DNA of 17,768 nt from an uncultured archaeon (GTDB taxonomy: Archaea > Asgardarchaeota > Thorarchaeia > Thorarchaeales > Thorarchaeaceae). The position numbers and the translations under genes are program-made. The notes beneath the pieces are model-generated. The model ran no database searches. It worked only from the letters and a program-made list of their open reading frames with translations, and had not been told where the DNA came from. The stretch spans positions 1-17,768 of the forward strand of contig CAZPWM010000064.1 in assembly GCA_964590575.1 (NCBI GenBank), in the 5' to 3' direction. Positions 869 to 8,547 of this stretch are shown one piece after another. Each line of letters begins with the position of its first letter. The first letter of the stretch is position 1.

Positions 869-3800
869 TTACTTCAAATCGTTTCTCAGTTTCAAGCCTC
901 GCTCATAATACTCTCTTCTCGTTCCCACGCCTAACTTCCACAACTCAACATCATCAGGTATGACCCCAAATGCCTTTTCTACTTCATTCCTCGAGTCTTC
1001 GGGATTGTTATTACCCATTAGTATCTCAGCCTTCAAAACTCTAGCTATAAACAGGTACCACTTTACTTCCTCATCTTCTAAATTCATAGTCACGAGATGT
1101 GAGATATTTTCATCAACTCGTTCTAGTGCCACATCAAATCGCTCTTGTCTGAGATAATACTCCACTAACTGGTTTGCATGGGAGCCCATAGCCTTGAGCT
1201 TACCCTCCTCTCGATATTCCTCAATAAACATAATCAATTCAGCCTCTTTGCGGTCGATACCATCTGCTTCCAGTTCATCGTCATCAAGAATTCCTCTCAA
1301 CATCATACGAAACTCCTCCTTGTTCTCAAGAGTATAATCAGACAATGCTCCCTCATCTAGGACATCAATAACTGAGTCTGTATCATCATCTTCACCTAGT
1401 GTGAACTCCTCTTCATAGATCACAACCTCATTCTCTTCCCAGATACTCAGAGTTATTCTCATCCCTTTTCCAGTTTGTGCAACATCAACTCGACACAGAG
1501 GCTTTTCATCTCCCCATCCATAGGCCTTGAGTTGTTCTCTAATACCATCAAGCTCCTCATCATAGTTGTAGATGTTGTCTCTTGATGCACCAATCATCTT
1601 CAACTCCCCGACCAGTTCTTCTATCATGCCCTCGAGATTTAAGGTTCCATTCAGTTTCATAGTAAATGTCTTTCCCATCCAAGACTGTTTAGTCAGTGTT
1701 GAATTTAGAGTCCAATGAATCATCCCCTTCTTGAACACACTCGATAATATCCACTCTCCCTCTGGGAGTGAGAACTCCTGGTCCTCATGTTCCTCGTCAT
1801 CATAGCTGAGAGCATGAACAAGCCGTGACTCCTCAGCTAATCCTGATGGCAGTCGCACACGTGTTAGTTGACTTACATCGATTTCAAGGGTGAAGTCTTT
1901 TCCAATACTAGCATCAACAAGTTCCTCACATTCAACAAGAAGTTCCAACTCATAGGGGTTCATCCATTCATCCTCAAGTGTCTTCAACTGCGACTTCTTT
2001 GGCAGCCCTTTGAGCTTGACCGTGATGAAGTTGAACTCACCCTTGTTTCGACGAACTTCATCTACCTCTGCCACAAGGGTGATTGTCCCTCCATCCCTTG
2101 TTTGGAGAAGCTCTGCACAAGTCTTGGGAAACAGATTCCCCAGTGAGAAGAGATCAACACGATGAACGAGAGGTGTGAAAAATGAGAGATATATGACATG
2201 CGCCTTTTCTCCACGTCGGTCGACGACAGCAGAATACTCTATGTCTTTCTTATGGTCCCAGAACAGCAGTCCACCATCATCTGTTCTTAGAGGTGTACCC
2301 TTCAAGTATGGGTGCTTCAACAAACCAATGAGCTCATACGTGTTTCTCAGCTCGTAGGAATGTCCTGAGCTGAACTCTACACGATAGCGCTCTGTTTCAA
2401 GGTTAATACTCACTTGGGTTTTCACATCCTCAATCTCTTCCGAACCTTTGAAGGCTCCAAAGAGCAACGAGTCCACATTTGCATCAACCTTGAGAATCTG
2501 CTCAGGTCTGCTTTTCTCCAGTTCCAAGAACAGACTCTCCGGAATTGGTGAGAGTTTAAGCCAACGTAACAGTCGTCCATCATCTCTGCTTGTGGCAAAC
2601 TCAAGAACCACAGGTGCAGTCCATTTGTCCTCTCCCTCAATCTCATCAATGAACCAGAGGATACAGGTTTCACCGATATTCGTAAGAGCTATCTGACTTC
2701 TCGCTGAGGATTCAGTCATAGTCCTAACAGAGGTCCTCAACGTTGATGGGTCAGTTATACATTGATTCCAGCCGAGCTTCAGTCCGTGACCTTCTAGATC
2801 TGATACAAGACCAATGAGTGGTTGGTCTGCATCTGGAAGCACAACCCATGCATTTGGTACTCCTTCCCTCTCCATCCAGATAAGCTGTCCATAAACTACA
2901 TCCTCGGTGGAAATTTGAGGTTGTATGGTATCCCTCAGACACGTTGCGCGGAACATCAGCCTCGAATAGATGAATTGGAAGTCATACTGTGATTGTGCCG
3001 TCTCTTCCGCGTGATCCATTGGCTGAAAACCCATCTGATACAGTTGCCATTCAACCATCGACTCCCATAGGGTTATGACAAGACCTTCAGAGGGTTTGAG
3101 AGAGTGTGTCTTGATGACTGTGAGAAGAGCAAGGAACAGGTTGTTCCCATAGAGTGAGATGATATCAGGACACAGCTCCTTCGCCATCTGCAGTACAGCC
3201 CTGTTGTCAGTTGTAAGGATGTCACCAAGTGTTTCTCTGGAGCCTTCAACCTCACTCCAGATTTGAGCTCTCCATGGATCACGAAGTATGATGTCCCGTA
3301 CTTCTTGAAGGGCAGTGACTAGAGTCTCTTCATCATGAGTGTCTAAGCGTACATCTACACACAGTCTGACTATATCCCGACAACATGAGTAAAGGTTACT
3401 GTTCTTGTGAAGTTGTTTCATGAGGAACTTTGCCGCACTCCTGAGTCGCCTAATCTCTCTCTTACTAGCTGATAAGGTGTTCACCTCATCCAGTCCCGTC
3501 CTTTGATACATTGGGGGCCTTCGAGAAACCCCCACCTCATACTCTTGGTCATTAGAATCAATGGGTATCTTGTCATAATACCATCCTCTCTTGATCTTTG
3601 AGAACTCAATATATTGTTTCTTTGACCTGGGAGGTCGTGGAGGAGGTCTATCGGGAACAAAGTTCATCCTATCAGTGAGCAAGGGAGAGTCATTGGATGT
3701 GACAGCTAGCGAGACGCTCTGCCATTTTTCTTCCGTGGTTTGTTCTTCATGCGTGGATGACATCTCACGCCTTAGAAGACTCGGAACGAGAGTCATTCCA

Positions 3801-6517
3801 ATGTTCTGTAATTGGTTCACAGTCTCCGATGTGAGAGATGTAAGTGATGAGTGAACTTTCTTGAGTGTCACAGAACGACCGTACATTGGCTCGCCCTCGA
3901 AGTCACCCCCATAGACCTCTGCTCCAGGAACTACTCCTTCTCTTCTGGAGAGCCCTCTGTATTTTCGCGCCCACCCCTTCAAGTGTGGTACCCTTATGGG
4001 TTGTATCCATGGAGGTGCTTTTGTTGGAGTGTCTTGAATGATTAGTCTTGTGTCCTCGTTTCTTGGAGTTCGCCAGCCAAAGACCCGAGGAGCAATTGGG
4101 ACATTGTAGATGATCTCATCAATGTGAAACCGTCTGGGGGAGTCGTGACGAAGAGGTCGTACACAAGCTCTCTGATAGTGCTTGTTCATCCTAGTGTGAG
4201 AGACTCCATTGTCGATCCAAATCACATTCACGTTTTGAGAGGGCAGAGTGTCCAGAAGTCGGTCCTCCAAATTTCTTAGAATGTTCATTTTTCTTGGTGA
4301 GGTCATTTCTTTCAGTTGTGCCCACCCATCAACTATGATGATCCTCTCAGAGTCGGTTGTTTCCTTGCTATGAAGTGGCTCTAAGACACTTACGAGTTCA
4401 ACGTCTGTACCAGAGAGAACCGAGTCAATAGTAGCTCGCAAGTTGAGGAAGGTGACATTATCCAAGAGTGCTGTCAGTGTCTTGTGCATCCCTCTCGTAA
4501 TCTGTCTCTTTTTCAGCAAGATGTCAAGACCGAATCTTCTCTTCATGAGATGGTCAGTGGGATAGTCTCCCAAAAAATCTAGCCAATAGACCTGTAGCTT
4601 CTTGTTCGATGGTTGAGAGACCTCCTCGATATGATTCAATAAGTGCCAGTTCCGAGAAACCCATGCTGCAGCATTCCCGAAAGAAGTAGATGAGGGAATC
4701 GAAACATAGTGGGTCAATATTCGATCATCTGACACTCTCTCCTTGAATGGGTCCTCAACGGAGAGTGACAAAACAGGAGATTGCTCCTTGAAGAGTTCAT
4801 CCAAGTTCTCGCCCTCAAGGAGCAGAAGTGCAACTCGTAGAGTGGCACCCTCCTCATCCTTTGAGTCGAAGGTGAGTGTTCTGGATTCGTTCTTACTAAG
4901 CTCGCCAGTGAGAATCCCATTGGTCAGTTCATCCAGAAGAGTGTGGAATGCATCAAAGACCTCTGAGTAATCTTGGTCAGTGTCAAGTACAATGACTCCT
5001 TTCCAGAGGTTCTTTGGAATAGTGACACCAGCAGGGTTTATTCTCTTACTCTCTTCGAGCAATGCTTTCTCATAAGCCTCGAGCTGTGTCAGGACCCGAT
5101 CATCCGGGTCTGATTCTATCGTTCTTCCCCACTCGTCTTCTGATAAAACCCGTTTCCATGCATAGAGTGCTGGGGGCATTTCTTTTTTCTTTCCGGTGTG
5201 GATGGCATAGAGATTGAAGTCAAAAGAGGTCTTCGACTTGACCTCAATGATCATCACTGGTGTCCACAACACAAGCCCCTTGATGTTCCGTCTGATGAAA
5301 AACGTAAGATCTATCCTCCCCTTCTCTCCAAGCCCTGTAACTGGAAGCTCACCAACAATCAGAATTGATGAAGGTTGGTCAAGCATCTTATCTCCTGCAA
5401 AGATGACTGACCTTAACGACTTGGGGTGGTGAAGGTCTGAGAGTAGAATTCTGTGCCAGTCGTTTCCCTCTTTCTGAGAGAGTGCGAGGACTTGGTCAAA
5501 GAGCTTTTCAACATCCCTATCGACAATTCTTCCTTGGTCGATATGGTCTAGTATCTCGGAGTATCTCTCTCTTGTCTTTGCATCATGAGTTTCAGCGATC
5601 AGCTCGCTTACTTTGGCCCATAGGATGTCTACAGTGGGTTCTGGGATGTCTATATCCAGCTCTCTTGTGATGGATTGCCTCTTTCCCACATGGCTGCTAT
5701 ATAGACTACGAATCTCTAGAACTAGCGTTCTCAGCTCTTTGTCAGCATCAGGCTCGAAGTAGTTTCTACCACTCTTTCCCTCAGAATAGACATAGTCCAA
5801 GAACGGAGTGAGTCGATGGATCAACAACCTGATGTATCTATGAGCATCAGAACGTGGAACATTGTGGATGAAACACTGACGGACCAGCTCCACGCTATGG
5901 GCACGAATCATATCAACAAAGTCAAGTCCTGGGAGAGTGGGATGAGTTAGCAACACTGTCGGGAATTTTCTATTTCCTTTGTATCCTGCTTTCCAGTGCG
6001 TTTCATTGGCATCATCATGGGCATACTTGGATACATGCTTCTTCTGGATTGTTGCCTTCGTTCCATCTGAATATTTCCTTATCTGGAATTTCTCTGGCTC
6101 TGGAAAGGGGTATCTCGTCGTAGCAAGGTCTCTCAAACGTGCTCCAAGATAGTTGAGTAAAGCATTTAGTGGTCCAACTGTGCCTTCCTCCCAGCTATAT
6201 ACTCGTTTGAACTCATTGTTTCCAAAACGTCGTGTGCTGTGCCAGAGGATCTTGAGAAAGAATCTTCTCAGGTTTGCCTCTGCGTTCTTAATTGGTGTGA
6301 AATCAAGTCGCGATTTTCCCACGCTTTCTCTTCTTCTCTTTTGTTCTGCTCTAGCCTCGCTCCAGTGTGTCAGAATACTCTCTAGGTACTTGCAAGTCTT
6401 CTTGTCAACCCGTTTCCTTGCAAGTCTGACCAAAGCAGTTAGCCCAGTGTAGATTGATGCTGTTAGGATGGCATTGGGGTTCATCTCTCTAGGCTTGCGG
6501 CCCATTGCAATCAGCAT
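869..6517 (-). CDS. Giant (1882 aa) multidomain protein: basic N-terminal region, RecB/Cas4-type PD-(D/E)XK nuclease, degenerate RecA/KaiC-like P-loop fold, acidic TPR-like C-terminus
   Basis: Uninterrupted 5.6-kb ORF. Motifs E390...GRID403...IIE425VK427S...Q478LEAY482. RecA-like order of elements YVSIPSSTSFGN (no GKT), VYWLD, IIIVD730GW, VIWID. The true start may be ATG 6505 (MGRKPR), given the TATA box at 6534-6541. Confidence 0.85.
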   Translation of the reverse strand: MLIAMGRKPREMNPNAILTASIYTGLTALVRLARKRVDKKTCKYLESILTHWSEARAEQKRRRESVGKSRLDFTPIKNAEANLRRFFLKILWHSTRRFGNNEFKRVYSWEEGTVGPLNALLNYLGARLRDLATTRYPFPEPEKFQIRKYSDGTKATIQKKHVSKYAHDDANETHWKAGYKGNRKFPTVLLTHPTLPGLDFVDMIRAHSVELVRQCFIHNVPRSDAHRYIRLLIHRLTPFLDYVYSEGKSGRNYFEPDADKELRTLVLEIRSLYSSHVGKRQSITRELDIDIPEPTVDILWAKVSELIAETHDAKTRERYSEILDHIDQGRIVDRDVEKLFDQVLALSQKEGNDWHRILLSDLHHPKSLRSVIFAGDKMLDQPSSILIVGELPVTGLGEKGRIDLTFFIRRNIKGLVLWTPVMIIEVKSKTSFDFNLYAIHTGKKKEMPPALYAWKRVLSEDEWGRTIESDPDDRVLTQLEAYEKALLEESKRINPAGVTIPKNLWKGVIVLDTDQDYSEVFDAFHTLLDELTNGILTGELSKNESRTLTFDSKDEEGATLRVALLLLEGENLDELFKEQSPVLSLSVEDPFKERVSDDRILTHYVSIPSSTSFGNAAAWVSRNWHLLNHIEEVSQPSNKKLQVYWLDFLGDYPTDHLMKRRFGLDILLKKRQITRGMHKTLTALLDNVTFLNLRATIDSVLSGTDVELVSVLEPLHSKETTDSERIIIVDGWAQLKEMTSPRKMNILRNLEDRLLDTLPSQNVNVIWIDNGVSHTRMNKHYQRACVRPLRHDSPRRFHIDEIIYNVPIAPRVFGWRTPRNEDTRLIIQDTPTKAPPWIQPIRVPHLKGWARKYRGLSRREGVVPGAEVYGGDFEGEPMYGRSVTLKKVHSSLTSLTSETVNQLQNIGMTLVPSLLRREMSSTHEEQTTEEKWQSVSLAVTSNDSPLLTDRMNFVPDRPPPRPPRSKKQYIEFSKIKRGWYYDKIPIDSNDQEYEVGVSRRPPMYQRTGLDEVNTLSASKREIRRLRSAAKFLMKQLHKNSNLYSCCRDIVRLCVDVRLDTHDEETLVTALQEVRDIILRDPWRAQIWSEVEGSRETLGDILTTDNRAVLQMAKELCPDIISLYGNNLFLALLTVIKTHSLKPSEGLVITLWESMVEWQLYQMGFQPMDHAEETAQSQYDFQFIYSRLMFRATCLRDTIQPQISTEDVVYGQLIWMEREGVPNAWVVLPDADQPLIGLVSDLEGHGLKLGWNQCITDPSTLRTSVRTMTESSARSQIALTNIGETCILWFIDEIEGEDKWTAPVVLEFATSRDDGRLLRWLKLSPIPESLFLELEKSRPEQILKVDANVDSLLFGAFKGSEEIEDVKTQVSINLETERYRVEFSSGHSYELRNTYELIGLLKHPYLKGTPLRTDDGGLLFWDHKKDIEYSAVVDRRGEKAHVIYLSFFTPLVHRVDLFSLGNLFPKTCAELLQTRDGGTITLVAEVDEVRRNKGEFNFITVKLKGLPKKSQLKTLEDEWMNPYELELLVECEELVDASIGKDFTLEIDVSQLTRVRLPSGLAEESRLVHALSYDDEEHEDQEFSLPEGEWILSSVFKKGMIHWTLNSTLTKQSWMGKTFTMKLNGTLNLEGMIEELVGELKMIGASRDNIYNYDEELDGIREQLKAYGWGDEKPLCRVDVAQTGKGMRITLSIWEENEVVIYEEEFTLGEDDDTDSVIDVLDEGALSDYTLENKEEFRMMLRGILDDDELEADGIDRKEAELIMFIEEYREEGKLKAMGSHANQLVEYYLRQERFDVALERVDENISHLVTMNLEDEEVKWYLFIARVLKAEILMGNNNPEDSRNEVEKAFGVIPDDVELWKLGVGTRREYYERGLKLRNDLK

Positions 6518-6542: not shown

Positions 6543-6589
6543 AATACGTTTCTAATGGTGAATTGAATAAGGCATATTAGAACCCTATT
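6543..6589. repeat. Imperfect inverted repeat (12/14) in the divergent promoter region, possible operator
   Basis: AATACGTTTCTAAT (6543-6556) and ATTAGAACCCTATT (6576-6589), 19-bp spacer. Confidence 0.5.
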
Positions 6590-6630
6590 TTTAAAATAAA
6601 ATGCTCATAATCCTTTATTATAAGAACGGC

Positions 6631-6645
6631 CTAATAAGTTTATAA
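6631..6645 (+). promoter_or_regulatory. BRE/TATA promoter for the tnpB leader transcript
   Basis: CTAATAAG-TTTATAA, predicting a start site near 6665-6670. Confidence 0.55.
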
Positions 6646-6741
6646 CCTCCGAAATAATAGAAAAGGTAGGAGTTCAAAACCTTCCTGATTGATATGAAAG
6701 GGAGTGAACTCGAAAGAGACAGGTCAGAAGTTTATAACCTC
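6636..6741 (+). repeat. Exact 14-bp direct repeat AAGTTTATAACCTC (6636-6649 and 6728-6741)
   Basis: Read directly from the sequence; 78 bp lie between the copies. Confidence 0.95.
6665..6741 (+). ncRNA. Putative crRNA-like guide unit in the tnpB leader (repeat-like 6702-6727, guide from 6728)
   Basis: 6702-6720 is complementary to 8462-8479. The segment ends in AGGTCAG, resembling archaeal IS200/IS605-type right ends, and is followed immediately by the 14-nt promoter match. Function is inferred. Confidence 0.45.
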
Positions 6742-6752
6742 AGGTGAAACAG

Positions 6753-8504
6753 ATGGGTCGCTCCAAAGGCACAATAATCAGCGTGAAAGTCCCAATACGA
6801 AGGGACTCTATGACTGATAGACAGAAGACTCGACTCTCGCAGATAACTGGAAGGGATACGCGAGTCATCAGGGCGTATCTTGGAGTGATTGAACGTCATG
6901 AAGATGAGTTGTTGACAGGTCACAAAAGAACGAGAATTGATGCTTCGAAACTGGATGAACTCACCCTGACTGCATCCAAAGGTAAGGCAAATAGAAATCA
7001 GGTCCCTCACGATTTCAAGGTTCGATTTCCAAATATATCCGCGAATGAGTTTCAGGAGTGTCGAGACACTGCCATTGCTATGTGGCAGAGTTATCTTGAG
7101 CTGGGCGGTTCCAAACCTTTCCGGATAAAGGGACACTCCACTCGAAAGATTCCACGATTTGCATTTACTCAACGTTTTGAGCTTGTATATAGTCCTGAGC
7201 TCGTAATTCGACACTGGTTGAAACTCAGGGACTCACTTGATTCAGTCAGTGAAGGGCGAGTACGACATGACAAGCTCATGATTCCCCTCTCTATCTCTTC
7301 TTTTCATCTAAATCGGTTGCAAGAGGGAGAGGTTAAGACAGTCCGTATCAACAAGGACTCCAGTCGTAAGTGGTGGGCTATCTTCACGGTGACTCTTTCT
7401 GTTGATAGAATCGATACTGTTGGCAAACCCCCTGCTGTACTGTCCATTGACCTTGGGATAAACAAGGCGGTTTGTTCAGTCCTGCTCACAAGAAAGGGCC
7501 ACAAACAGATTCGCTACTGGAAACAGGAGGACAAGCTTCAGCGGATGAAGGTACTGGATGAGAGGGTTGCGTCACTCCAGCGAGAAAAGGAACATCTCAT
7601 CGCAAAGGGTGGGAATCCCGACAGAGTAACTTTCCAGCTCAGGCGTCTACGTGGAAAACGAGAACGTGTTAGTACGGAATATGACAGGAAGCTTGTGCGA
7701 GATATTTCCGATCACATCATAGAGATGACCGATGTCTATGACCTTTATGTTTCAATAGGTAGGGTGAAAGGAATCAGAAATGCTGCCAGAAAGGGTAATT
7801 GTAGAGGGAGAAGATTCAGAGGGATGATCCATCGCTGGGCTTTTGCAAGGATTCGCGACATGTTGGAACACAGACTCACTTCCCTTGGGTTTGATCCCAA
7901 GAAGTACAACACAGTCCCGGAGCAATGGACCTCTATCATGTGTCACAAGTGTGGACACAAGGGAATACGCCCAAAACAGAACCTCTTCATCTGTACCACC
8001 TGTGGACTGAAGACAAACGCCGACCTGAATGGCGCTTCCAATATTGGGAAGCGCTTTATTATGCTCATCCCTTCACTGAGAGATGAGAACGGACTAGGGA
8101 TGTGGCTCACTCCCAGAGATAGAGCTATACTGAAAGCCCGGAGGAAGACTCGTGCTTCTGATGGGAAGTCCGCACTCCCCCAGGGAACACCAGACCCGAA
8201 GGGGGAGTCCGTGGCCGACTCCTATGACCAGACTTCAATAGTGGAGTTTGCGAGGTGTGAAGACCCTGTCATGGTAAGTGCTGTGGAAACACCGTCTGCT
8301 ATCGCACCAGCTGGTGAGTGTGAGGGAATGCAGCGGACAGAAACCGGGTCCCATCAGAGGAACGATGTTCCAGTGAAGAGGGGCAAAGCTCACGACACTC
8401 TGAAAGATTCCGATCTTTTGGAAGTTGGTGACAGCAGTCGTGAGAAGGGTGGAACGCAGAAGTCTCTTATAGTTCACTCACACTATAAGAAATGGGTTCT
8501 ATAG
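6753..8504 (+). CDS. tnpB: TnpB/Cas12f-like RNA-guided endonuclease with a rearranged (Fanzor-type) RuvC active site and a long C-terminal tail
   Basis: Numbered from the 586-aa ORF: RuvC-I SID236LG, RuvC-II position VSIG339RVKGIR, relocated E393 (VPEQWTSIMC), zinc finger C400/C403/C417/C420, RuvC-III NAD427LNGASNI. ATG 6753 is preferred because AGGTGA (6742-6747) is a canonical archaeal RBS. Confidence 0.92.
   Translation: MGRSKGTIISVKVPIRRDSMTDRQKTRLSQITGRDTRVIRAYLGVIERHEDELLTGHKRTRIDASKLDELTLTASKGKANRNQVPHDFKVRFPNISANEFQECRDTAIAMWQSYLELGGSKPFRIKGHSTRKIPRFAFTQRFELVYSPELVIRHWLKLRDSLDSVSEGRVRHDKLMIPLSISSFHLNRLQEGEVKTVRINKDSSRKWWAIFTVTLSVDRIDTVGKPPAVLSIDLGINKAVCSVLLTRKGHKQIRYWKQEDKLQRMKVLDERVASLQREKEHLIAKGGNPDRVTFQLRRLRGKRERVSTEYDRKLVRDISDHIIEMTDVYDLYVSIGRVKGIRNAARKGNCRGRRFRGMIHRWAFARIRDMLEHRLTSLGFDPKKYNTVPEQWTSIMCHKCGHKGIRPKQNLFICTTCGLKTNADLNGASNIGKRFIMLIPSLRDENGLGMWLTPRDRAILKARRKTRASDGKSALPQGTPDPKGESVADSYDQTSIVEFARCEDPVMVSAVETPSAIAPAGECEGMQRTETGSHQRNDVPVKRGKAHDTLKDSDLLEVGDSSREKGGTQKSLIVHSHYKKWVL
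8155..8500 (+). ncRNA. Putative omega/reRNA (tracr-like) scaffold overlapping the tnpB 3' end
   Basis: Nested stems: 8157-8166/8349-8358 (10 bp), 8168-8173/8333-8338, 8174-8181/8201-8208, 8222-8228/8268-8274, 8229-8250 hairpin, 8359-8371, 8389-8396/8437-8444, 8403-8418, 8465-8473/8482-8490. TnpB RNAs are known to overlap the gene 3' end. Confidence 0.75.
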
Positions 8505-8547
8505 GCTTATCATAGTAGAATCAACATTAGAGGCAGTGAGAGATACG

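Follow-up and report, generated by a model that had tools for sequence, protein, structure and literature searches.

A thorarchaeal tnpB leader that pairs with the omegaRNA-like end of its own gene and may carry a second, promoter-matching guide

Why should the 5′ leader of a tnpB gene carry a segment complementary to the 3′ end of that same gene? A first-pass annotation of the window (the whole 17.8-kb stretch of DNA analysed) had suggested that one scaffold could use either a cis guide or a separate, crRNA-like piece from the leader, and had named degenerate terminal inverted repeats as the alternative. Here we examine the pairing in this sequence and its relatives, the sequence that follows each arm, and the explanations that compete to account for them.

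The tnpB locus and its neighbour

The main features of the locus are as follows.

869..6517, minus strand: giant open reading frame of 1,882 amino acids (~1,900), function unassigned
6742..6747, plus strand: Shine–Dalgarno-like AGGTGA, 5 nt 5′ of the ATG
6753..8504, plus strand: tnpB, 583 amino acids, with ATG at 6753, stop codon at 8502–8504 and glycine instead of the RuvC-II glutamate
8095..8500, plus strand: omegaRNA-like scaffold region overlapping the 3′ end of the reading frame, with an approximate 5′ limit

The encoded protein scores above the cut-off of Pfam PF07282 (48.2 bits; cut-off, 26.3), narrowly misses that of NCBIfam guided_TnpB (NF040570; 98 bits; cut-off, 100) and falls below that of PF01385 (21.2 bits; cut-off, 30.5); it also matches TnpB/Cas12f entries among PDB sequences. 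In a 25-row alignment, the Thorarchaeota rows keep the RuvC-I aspartate (IDLG), the RuvC-III aspartate (NADLN) and the zinc finger (CHKC...CTTC), and the canonical RuvC-II glutamate is absent, the site reading SIG or VVG, with glycine, in all 25. The glycine fits the 'RuvC-II rearranged' clades, in which, in the account given in the cited section, another glutamate is thought to stand in (PMC10691335). The conserved glutamate of PE(Q)WTS is a candidate for that replacement here. A C-terminal extension of 150 amino acids overlaps the RNA scaffold region. Upstream of the ATG, the AGGTGA motif is kept as (C)AGGTGAAA in nearly all loci; going by archaeal 16S 3′ ends, we take it to be the ribosome-binding site.

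The giant gene is divergent from tnpB and is inherited together with it. C64:883-8501 and C2:66398-58780, at 75% identity, span both genes, and at least 16 loci have a homologue of the giant gene on the upstream side of tnpB; the leader and right end described below are linked to a conserved protein of ~1,900 amino acids, for which PDB sequences, Pfam (E up to 10), NCBIfam and the ESM Atlas yielded no family match. As for the C64/C2 duplication, its left border was set aside, as it falls at the stop codon of the giant gene. The same genome holds several paralogous tnpB copies, and neither Y1 TnpA (PF01797) nor Cas1 was found in it (completeness, 91.45%). Of the hallmarks of IS200/IS605, hairpins are present near both ends of the element and TnpA was not found; the left end is placed only to about −125 to −140 from the ATG.

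Complementarity between leader and 3′ end

The segments that can pair, and the alternative fold of the downstream segment, are listed here.

6668..6727, plus strand: leader block, putatively 5′ UTR and crRNA-like scaffold piece; conservation among paralogs begins at 6668
6670–6711, plus strand: leader hairpin, folding at −16.2 kcal/mol and also found as an inverted repeat
6702–6710, plus strand: leader arm of helix 1, GAGTGAACT, followed by cga
6714–6720, plus strand: leader arm of helix 2, AAGAGAC
6721–6727, plus strand: leader tail AGGTCAG, homologous to the right-end tail
8462..8479, plus strand: 3′ strand that pairs with the leader, made up of GTCTCTT (helix 2, 8462–8468), at, and AGTTCACTC (helix 1, 8471–8479)
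8465..8490, plus strand: alternative local (cis) terminal hairpin, its loop holding AGTTCACTCA

The 9+7-bp complementarity between 6702–6720 and 8462–8479 lies exactly where the first-pass annotation had placed it, with the 3′ arm inside the tnpB reading frame. Two further observations made there also hold: the downstream segment can form a local hairpin (TCTTATAG, 8465–8472, with CTATAAGA, 8483–8490), and AAGA followed by ten nucleotides containing GGT occurs at both places, at 6717–6727 and 8487–8500. On this one sequence the complementarity is borderline and could be due to chance. The duplex energy of −23.5 kcal/mol is equalled in 3 of 1,000 mononucleotide shuffles, the duplex ranks only about seventh among 3,523 windows of the 17.8-kb stretch, and an ungapped repeat search, which recovered the 14-nt direct repeat described below and 22 inverted pairs of comparable size within 2.6 kb, does not list the gapped arm pair among them. 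An RNAcofold run of the kind proposed did not favour the duplex for naked RNA: for 6668–6745 with 8280–8520, the minimum-energy cofold retains both local hairpins and not the long-range pairing, so that, if the duplex forms, remodelling by a protein must be assumed.

In the genome, nhmmer detects five leader blocks, each of them single and each preceding a tnpB copy; the search gave no tandem units, and there is one unit per gene. The expectation that further GAGTGAACT..AAGARAC..GGTCNN units would turn up genome-wide was therefore borne out by five leader units, each with a different downstream segment.

Covariation of the two arms among relatives

It is the relatives that make the pairing solid. 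In about 30 Thorarchaeota relatives the pairing is kept and compensated, the leader and 3′ arms co-varying. Helix 2, counted over 28 loci (L027, L067 and L029 left out), is paired in 182 of 196 cells, and its one variable pair reads A:T in 15 loci, G:C in 9 and G:T in 1, with 3 mismatched (Fisher p 1e-4, without phylogenetic correction); the G:T locus, L072, is an intermediate. On a TnpB tree of 28 of the 31 rows (L027 and L067 left out, together with L066, the translation of which is shorter than 400 amino acids), the G:C state requires five changes, at least four of them forced by well-supported branches. Moreover, among the 11 loci in which the right end has C at this position, 9 carry the matching G in the leader, whereas the base in the cis 3′ strand matches in only 1 of 9, which argues for selection on pairing with the leader.

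Helix 1 changes in the same concerted manner. Three of its pairs are altered together in L029 (GAGGAAACC/GGTTTCCTC), leaving 9 of 9 paired, and in the divergent lineages L021, L029 and L031 both arms have been rewritten jointly, the own partner being best by 2–12 kcal/mol. In these three loci, and also in L001 and L017, no combination of leader and right end is more stable than the cognate one. For 8 of 11 loci, no other part of the element forms a better duplex with the 3′ strand than the leader does, and for 2 the leader comes second. Pairing between leader and right end, with its covariation, is established here by comparison of the aligned sequences.

The putative 3′ scaffold and the tail shared with the leader

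The right end of the element can be read on the TnpB plan.

8491..8500, plus strand: cis tail AATGGGTTCT, with the right end of the element at ~8500/8501
8501..8520, plus strand: canonical cis guide position in the right flank, assigned from the known TnpB/omegaRNA layout

Nucleotide-level conservation of the last ~110 nt persists even between loci whose proteins are only 60% identical; Rfam, at gathering thresholds, has no match in the window. Contigs from four metatranscriptome runs cover only 6981–7212 and about 8094–8480 of the locus, and contigs at 100% identity span 8094/8096 to 8320–8392; because these data are contigs, the coverage is a weak hint of a scaffold RNA. In these runs no contig lies over the leader or over 6560–6980, a gap in coverage that carries no weight against a leader RNA. 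The terminal hairpin folds in 14 of 14 loci despite differing stem sequences, and T:A, C:G and G:U variants of the stem are visible in the alignment. RNAalifold, run on 15 right ends (eight loci with missing or divergent ends were left out, as was L014, which has no tail), did not recover this hairpin because of indels. It offered another 5-bp partner for part of the loop, a GUGAG/UUCAC helix that shows no covariation and whose GUGAG partner is lost in L029.

Homology to the paralogs ends at 8495–8501. The 12–16-mers that start at 8501 have no second occurrence in the genome, and no right-flank guide of the copies in this genome has a second genomic site at 14 nt, with the exception of C11, whose right flank has 16 nt in common with C65; ARAGORN found no tRNA adjoining the C11-type right flank.

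Both arrangements, the leader duplex and the cis hairpin, end in the tail AAGARAC-AGGTCNN followed by variable sequence. The earlier remark on two similar tails extends to the whole family, in which AAGA with a GGT-core tail directly precedes variable sequence at both places. For the form AAGAAAC-AGGTCNN, the tails of leader and right end agree exactly in 5 of 31 loci and closely in the others.

A promoter-like target for a putative leader guide

What follows the leader tail is a short variable segment that recurs upstream.

6631..6635, plus strand: TAM-like CTAAT directly 5′ of the target; a putative TAM
6636..6649, plus strand: leader-guide target AAGTTTATAACCTC, an exact 14-nt direct repeat of 6728–6741, TATA-box-like
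6728..6741, plus strand: leader guide, identical to 6636–6649 and differing between loci

The target lies 92 nt upstream of the leader guide, and the 12-mer of the guide occurs at these two sites only in the 3.4-Mb genome; the corresponding 12-mers are likewise confined to guide and target in all four intact copies of this genome. Across loci from genomes, 19 of 26 have a guide–target match of 12–17 nt that begins immediately behind the 7-nt tail, and mismatches first appear at nucleotides 10–18; the match with its register was replicated in 19 of 22 metagenome loci. Exact matches of at least 12 nt are found within the locus in 17 of 26 cases, across loci in 14 of 650 pairs and in shuffles in 1 of 5,200. 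The identity of guide and target, and its register, can be read directly from the loci.

The motif 5′ of the target is equally regular. All 19 loci that have a target carry T at −4 and A at −2, and 18 of them carry T at −1; any base occurs at −3. The guide corresponds to the top strand 3′ of TNAT, as TnpB/Cas12 targeting demands, and GGTCAG, not TNAT, stands before the DNA of the guide itself. A cognate target beside TNAT in the promoter region of its own gene is what a genuine guide would need. The A/T-rich, TATA-like core and a spacing of ~26 nt from where leader conservation sets in suggest that the target is a promoter element of tnpB; as the repeat contains a conserved TATA-like core, the identity could partly reflect promoter-like constraint on both copies.

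Seven of the 26 genome loci lack the target, and their left ends have been replaced or truncated; in at least one of these, C111, the reading frame is still intact. No upstream direct repeat of 10 nt or more was found at the three further giant-gene/TnpB-like pairs of the genome (C69, C6 and C123), and the Heimdallarchaeum relatives (17 loci, 33–36% identity) show no comparable leader or repeat. As a separate observation, TNAT overlaps a possible BRE.

A model of one scaffold with two guides

On balance we favour, by our own estimate, a reading in which one TnpB scaffold serves two guides and the short leader guide parks TnpB on its own promoter, repressing it. The conserved pairing, the further units and the shared tail lend support to the original proposal that one scaffold may take either its cis guide or a separate crRNA-like piece of the leader. 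The usual omegaRNA would overlap the 3′ end of tnpB and consist of the hairpin, the tail AAGAAAY-RGGTYNN and, from 8501, a guide from flanking DNA. The leader would be a second copy of the guide-proximal piece (GAGTGAACT..AAGAGAC-AGGTCAG) with a guide of 12–17 nt. This piece is predicted to pair over 16–19 bp with the 5′ strand and loop of the terminal hairpin of the omegaRNA, displacing the 3′ strand, much as a crRNA repeat pairs with tracrRNA.

The leader guide would then correspond to the TATA-box-like element of its own promoter, with TNAT 5′ of that element, and a loaded TnpB ribonucleoprotein would therefore occupy that promoter. Guides of 10 nt are reported to allow TnpB binding without cleavage (PMC13507860); a match of just 12–17 nt may likewise lead to binding without cutting, and transcription would be repressed. 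Every paralog would have a private pair of guide and operator. We infer from this arrangement that the leader is transcribed from the promoter in question, that TnpB makes use of the leader and that repression is the outcome.

A broader form of the model is more tentative, and we lean slightly against it. The locus might be a natural two-RNA TnpB in which the omegaRNA acts as tracrRNA for the separate crRNA-like leader and the nuclease switches between homing and a short promoter guide, the pairs of the paralogs being orthogonal and co-evolving. It might then represent a living 'RNA splitting' step from omegaRNA to CRISPR that arose for self-regulation and not defence, within a conserved two-gene module with the 1,900-amino-acid protein.

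Other explanations

The leader might instead be a cis-regulatory mimic, pairing with the omegaRNA part of the same transcript or serving as a decoy TnpB site beside the ribosome-binding site, and thereby govern translation, the processing of mRNA into omegaRNA or the supply of omegaRNA; the direct repeat would then need a separate origin, for example short-tract gene conversion between two TATA-like elements. The pairing itself, which is well supported, would suit such a mimic, as would the closed hairpin that the leader has of its own, the position of the guide next to the Shine–Dalgarno-like AGGTGA and the report that TnpB processes its own mRNA into omegaRNA (PMC10278001). We consider this unlikely, however, as it leaves unexplained both the exact, in-register and locus-specific promoter copy next to TNAT (19 of 26 and 19 of 22 loci) and the presence in the leader of the same guide-proximal tail as at the right end. 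The second TATA-like copy, lying ~18 nt from the ATG and upstream of the Shine–Dalgarno-like motif, is for that reason unlikely to be a promoter itself. A leader guide could also serve mobility, with TnpB cutting or nicking its own left border to bring about copying, gene conversion or excision without TnpA. The genome (91% complete) does hold several paralogous copies although no Y1 TnpA or Cas1 was found, the target sits ~10–20 nt inside the left limit of homology, and the catalytic aspartates are kept. Yet the match is only 12–17 nt long, being ended by the Shine–Dalgarno motif and ATG, and binding without cutting is reported for short guides; cutting its own occupied site would be costly; and many copies occupy orthologous sites in different MAGs beside the same giant gene, which points to vertical inheritance rather than active movement. 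We regard this role as improbable.

Two explanations dispense with RNA function altogether. The arms could be degenerate inverted repeats recognized as DNA by a transposase, the alternative raised at the outset. By eye, a motif of the ACGTAAAAAA type can be made out, inverted, close to either end in the Heimdallarchaeum relatives (33–36% identity), and repeats around Asgard Cas1–TnpB loci are reported in the cited section of Altae-Tran et al. 2023 (PMC10691335). This fits the arms poorly and strikes us as very improbable: they are subterminal, lying ~70–85 nt and 22–39 nt inside the ends; substitutions that leave a G:U pair in place while destroying identity at the DNA level are tolerated; on the right, the arm makes up loop and stem of an RNA hairpin that is conserved and lies in the expressed 3′ region; and no transposase gene was found. 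Functionless chance complementarity in an A/T-rich region, which the rank of about 7 among 3,523 windows and the 22 further inverted pairs, comparable in size, within 2.6 kb would allow, is contradicted by conservation, repeated compensatory change and lineage-specific cognate pairing, and we give it almost no credence.

Comparison with known systems

A reading in which the leader supplies TnpB with a second guide sets the locus beside several known systems; a literature search, with most subscription papers outside its scope, returned no description of a TnpB leader guide or of TnpB self-repression by a guide RNA. With IS200/IS605 TnpB and its omegaRNA the locus has in common a TnpB-family RuvC/zinc-finger protein, a conserved RNA-like scaffold over the 3′ end of the reading frame, and a sharp stop of homology at the right end with unique flank at the guide position. 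Unlike those elements, it has a second guide-proximal module with its own guide in the 5′ leader, no TnpA found in the genome, glycine for the RuvC-II glutamate, a 150-amino-acid C-terminal extension over the scaffold and a constant linkage to the giant gene.

Split guides of tracrRNA and crRNA are known from TranC and Cas12f-type systems (Jin et al., Cell 2025, as relayed in the review PMC13565253). As outlined in that review, these share with our locus a separately encoded short piece, comprising repeat-like arm, tail and guide, that is complementary to the stem-closing strand of the scaffold; complementarity of the repeat:anti-repeat kind between two separately encoded segments is found here with compensatory changes, and a duplex of two RNAs may form from it. 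The present locus differs in having a single unit and no array, placed upstream in the leader of the gene itself, in retaining its cis guide, in a target that would be its own promoter and not foreign DNA, and in that its split form is putative. No CRISPR array of two or more repeat–spacer units was found beside tnpB, the leader units being single.

If correct, the reading would mean a split guide, with scaffold and separate guide-bearing piece, in a plain TnpB locus without a CRISPR array, and the transition from omegaRNA to tracrRNA and crRNA would become directly testable in a natural system. It would also provide ready orthogonal pairs of guide and operator and a candidate TnpB that takes a short trans guide, of use for compact editors or regulators.

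As for regulation, CreR, other crRNA-like RNAs and tracr-L are partly complementary guides through which Cas effectors shut down their own promoters (bioRxiv 2023.03.10.532045, 2023.03.03.530964 and 2020.05.21.102756). In the outline that these preprints give, the likeness lies in a degenerate repeat with a short guide to the effector's own promoter by a PAM-like motif, and in the predicted binding without cleavage, leading to autorepression; the present locus has a match of 12–17 nt beside TNAT to what is probably its own promoter. Here, by contrast, the effector is a TnpB of the transposon type, neither a CRISPR array nor cas genes were found, and the module lies within the mRNA leader, with a private guide/operator pair for each paralog. 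RNA-guided autorepression would, on the same reading, extend from Cas effectors to a transposon nuclease, in a compact form with the guide in the mRNA leader. TldR proteins, nuclease-dead TnpB-like repressors (PMC10705468), are similar, as far as the cited account goes, in that a TnpB relative is proposed to bind a promoter by an RNA guide beside a TAM. They differ from the protein described here, which keeps the RuvC-I and RuvC-III aspartates and is longer (583 amino acids) and not truncated; its regulatory guide would be an extra 5′ module and not the 3′ guide, and its target its own promoter.

In Cas1-linked TnpB loci of Asgard archaea, tnpB is followed by a 'hypervariable region' and by GTTCACTCA, a conserved motif; in the section cited, Altae-Tran et al. 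2023 suggested that the hypervariable stretch might be the guide, and left the matter open (PMC10691335). No Cas1 was found in the present genome, unlike at those loci as described there, but here, too, the 3′ end of tnpB has a conserved T, a short variable stretch and then GTTCACTCA. If the reading holds, the comparison would offer an explanation for both features of Asgard TnpB loci, since here the variable stretch is a hairpin stem that co-varies with its 3′ strand, and GTTCACTCA is the hairpin loop, complementary to the leader.

Pairing between the leader and the right end

The first-pass annotation asked whether a 9+7-bp complementarity across tnpB makes up a split, tracr/crRNA-like omegaRNA. 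The features concerned are:

6636–6649: target of the leader guide
6668–6727: leader, the 5′ block upstream of tnpB
6728–6741: putative leader guide
AGGTGA 3′ of the guide, then ATG (+): likely ribosome-binding site
ATG 6753, stop 8502–8504 (+): tnpB, 583 aa, the single gene spanned by the pairing
~8095–8500: scaffold, an omegaRNA-like region
869–6517 (−): giant ORF, 1882 aa, divergent from tnpB

The leader strand (GAGTGAACT-cga-AAGAGAC, 6702–6720) and the 3′ strand (GTCTCTT-at-AGTTCACTC, 8462–8479), which pair as helices 1 and 2, have the bases reported there, and the analysis confirms the local hairpin (8465–8472/8483–8490) together with both 'AAGA + 10 nt' tails. Judged from the window sequence alone, the duplex is unimpressive: its energy of −23.5 kcal/mol was equalled or beaten in 3 of 1,000 shuffles and ranked about seventh among 3,523 windows (17.8 kb), and an ungapped repeat finder gave 22 further inverted pairs of comparable size within 2.6 kb. 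The minimum-energy cofold retained a leader hairpin (6670–6711, −16.2 kcal/mol) and the right-end hairpin, not the long-range duplex, and the thermodynamics of naked RNA are unfavourable to a split guide.

We collected homologous loci from public genomes (43) and metagenomes (38). The source genome (3.4 Mb, 91% complete, the window being its contig C64) carries further full copies on contigs C111, C2 and C11 (82%, 79% and 67% DNA identity), a 5′ fragment on C141 and other pieces of the element. Within the element, the leader ranked first among 30-nt partners of the right-end strand in 8 of 11 loci, took second place in two and a lower place in one; its pairing window lies at −53 to −62 from the ATG. 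Helix 1 (GAGTGAACT/AGTTCACTC) is almost invariant across loci and several single changes yield G:U; at locus L029 (GAGGAAACC/GGTTTCCTC), three pairs are altered on both sides and 9 of 9 are paired. In helix 2 (AAGARAC/GTYTCTT), 182 of 196 cells are paired across 28 loci (L029 and two mis-anchored rows left out), and the variable pair is A:T in 15, G:C in 9, G:T in 1, A:C in 2 and A:A in 1 (Fisher p = 1e-4, uncorrected for relatedness). The G:C state needs five changes on the TnpB protein tree (28 rows), at least four of them forced by well-supported branches and one being the doubtful L029 row; L072 is a G:T intermediate. A C in the right-end strand is matched by G in the leader in 9 of 11 loci, and in the local 3′ strand in only 1 of 9, which locates the compensation in the leader. 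In a 6 × 6 matrix of leaders against right-end strands, the cognate pair was the most stable for L001, L017, L021 (−30.4 versus −18.3 or weaker for non-cognate), L029 (−28.3 versus −22.2) and L031, and L004 tied with L017. Helix 2 covariation, the L029 double changes and cognate-pair stability show that the pairing is conserved and compensated in homologues, and that it is real in an evolutionary sense.

A terminal hairpin formed in 14 of 14 right ends folded singly, with (A)GUUCACUCA within or beside its loop; the stem sequence varies by locus, and the same stem pair occurs in T:A, C:G and G:U versions in the right-end alignment. Altae-Tran et al. 2023 (PMC10691335) described, without explaining it, a pattern of 'conserved T, variable stretch, GTTCACTCA' downstream of Asgard tnpB; it can be understood here as a co-varying stem and a loop complementary to the leader. 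Homology between copies ends at 8495–8501, directly after AAGAAAT-GGGTTCT. The family-wide right end is AAGAAAC-AGGTCNN, then unrelated flank, and the leader terminus is AAGARAC-AGGTCAG; in 5 of 31 loci the two places share one 7-nt tail (AGGTCTT or AGGTCGT, for example), and elsewhere their tails are very much alike. With the same tail at both places, the leader duplicates the guide-proximal scaffold end. The covarying pairing and the common tail support a split guide to the extent that sequence comparison can.

A putative leader guide with a cognate target

The 14 nt 3′ of the leader tail (6728–6741, AAGTTTATAACCTC) are exactly repeated at 6636–6649. This candidate self-target is a new point beyond the first-pass annotation and sharpens its split-guide idea. 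The repeated sequence is locus-specific, yet kept within each locus (AAGTTTAAATCC on C2, AACCTTAAATTCAA on C11, AAATTTATTAGG on C141 and many others): 17 of 26 genome loci contain an exact internal match of at least 12 nt, compared with 14 of 650 pairs drawn across loci (close relatives) and 1 of 5,200 shuffles. With the guide start set to the first base 3′ of the leader tail, the match runs from guide nt 1 in 19 of the 26 genome loci, the target lies 92–101 nt upstream and the first mismatch falls at nt 10–18. The bases 5′ of the target are T at −4 (19/19), A at −2 (19/19) and T at −1 (18/19). In the other seven genome loci the left end has been replaced or truncated and no target is present; the pattern recurs in 19 of 22 evaluable metagenome loci, one of which is identical to the window. 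In the source genome, each 12-mer occurs twice only, as guide and own target (4/4 intact copies); the C111 copy is truncated and has an orphan guide. Paralog homology extends 10–20 nt left of the target, so the inherited unit contains both guide and target, which must coevolve. At L020, the last 9 nt of the target (ATAACCTCA) are all that is left, then unrelated G+C-rich sequence, a left-end truncation inside the target.

TnpB and possible self-repression

TnpB matches Pfam Cas12f1-like_TNB (48.2 bits, cut-off 26.3), OrfB_IS605 weakly, NCBIfam guided_TnpB slightly below cut-off (98 bits, cut-off 100), and TnpB and Cas12f chains in the PDB. A 25-row alignment shows conservation of the RuvC-I aspartate (IDLG), of NADLN in RuvC-III and of the zinc finger, and glycine replaces the canonical RuvC-II glutamate in 25/25 rows. 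Altae-Tran et al. 2023 (PMC10691335) report such a replacement for 'RuvC-II rearranged' clades, which in their view are active. Neither Y1 TnpA nor Cas1 was found in the 91%-complete genome. The C-terminal 150 aa, missing from Heimdallarchaeum relatives, share their DNA with the RNA scaffold (~8060–8501), and over the last ~110 nt of tnpB DNA conservation exceeds overall protein conservation.

The target has a TATA-box-like core, and the conserved leader block begins ~26 nt 3′ of the target centre, as expected for the distance from an archaeal promoter to the start site. We infer that the target is probably a promoter element of tnpB; the second (guide) copy lies too near the ATG for that role. 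A TNAT motif, the putative TAM, precedes top-strand sequence equal to the guide, a geometry as in TnpB and Cas12; in the DNA encoding the guide, GGTCAG stands where TNAT precedes the target. In one TnpB study (PMC13507860), the protein is reported to bind but not cut with a 10-nt guide, and to cut with a 20-nt guide. Given the TATA-like target, this geometry and such binding, we propose that TnpB would hold the scaffold, that the leader piece would take the place of the local 3′ strand, and that the leader-guided TnpB would bind its own promoter and shut it off. CreR, crRNA-like RNAs and tracr-L of CRISPR systems are known parallels to such self-repression, and TranC split guides to the leader and scaffold arrangement. 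Against self-repression, the TATA-like core could be constrained for other reasons.

Contigs from four metatranscriptome runs are 100% identical to the window from 8094/8096 to 8320–8392, and those of one run match 6981–7212 as well. None of the contigs reaches the leader, a gap that counts neither for nor against its expression. An abundant 3′ RNA fits this coverage, which is weak evidence because the contigs lack ends and the assemblies are broken by paralogs. The contigs of all four runs start at 8094–8096, a position that could mark the omegaRNA 5′ end or a stretch shared by paralogs at which assembly broke off.

Related elements and the giant gene

Another eight right-end/omegaRNA-like modules, belonging to a second subfamily (…GGTGACACTGGCAAGAG…GATTCACTCAC…AGGTCA), lie in the source genome at:

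C11:42431–42537
C3:12431–12327
C79:10370–10261
C8:47097–47183
C174:2786–2693
C112:67–154
C6:25649–25733
C107:9282–9199

Most have no long open frame upstream; they represent decayed copies of tnpB or else stand-alone genes for guide RNA. Heimdallarchaeum chromosomes (L034–L050) carry many near-identical copies of a TnpB element (33–36% identical), in which inspection by eye showed a leader rich in purines and, near each end, an inverted ACGTAAAAAA-type motif; these represent another element type, apparently active, that lacks the leader guide. One flank, CATAGCCAAGCTAGGCC…, adjoins four copies (L004 (C11:29643...), L012, L017 and L028); its first 16 nt, tail included, also occur at C65:3445 in a tRNA-like context, where ARAGORN called no tRNA.

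C64:883–8501, in the window, and C2:66398–58780 are 75% identical, so the giant gene and tnpB were duplicated together, in a segment bounded on the right by the tnpB right end. At least 16 loci encode a homologue of the giant protein upstream of tnpB, divergent ones (26–27% identity) included. Beside tnpB, the giant ORF is also present at:

C2:60779–66406
L003, L005, L009, L010, L014, L021, L023, L025, L029–L031, L057, L067, L071, L072

The protein (1882 aa) had no match in Pfam, NCBIfam, PDB or Atlas, and none of its 172 family members (E ≤ 1e-5) has a Pfam domain; those with a source name are mostly 'hypothetical' and mostly from Thorarchaeota. The giant gene and tnpB look like a conserved two-gene module. 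Other giant-ORF paralogs of the genome (C69, C6, C123 and C141) also adjoin TnpB-like genes. Just past the 3′ end of the giant gene lies a TFIIB-repeat ORF (40–471, +; C-terminal part, 8e-32).
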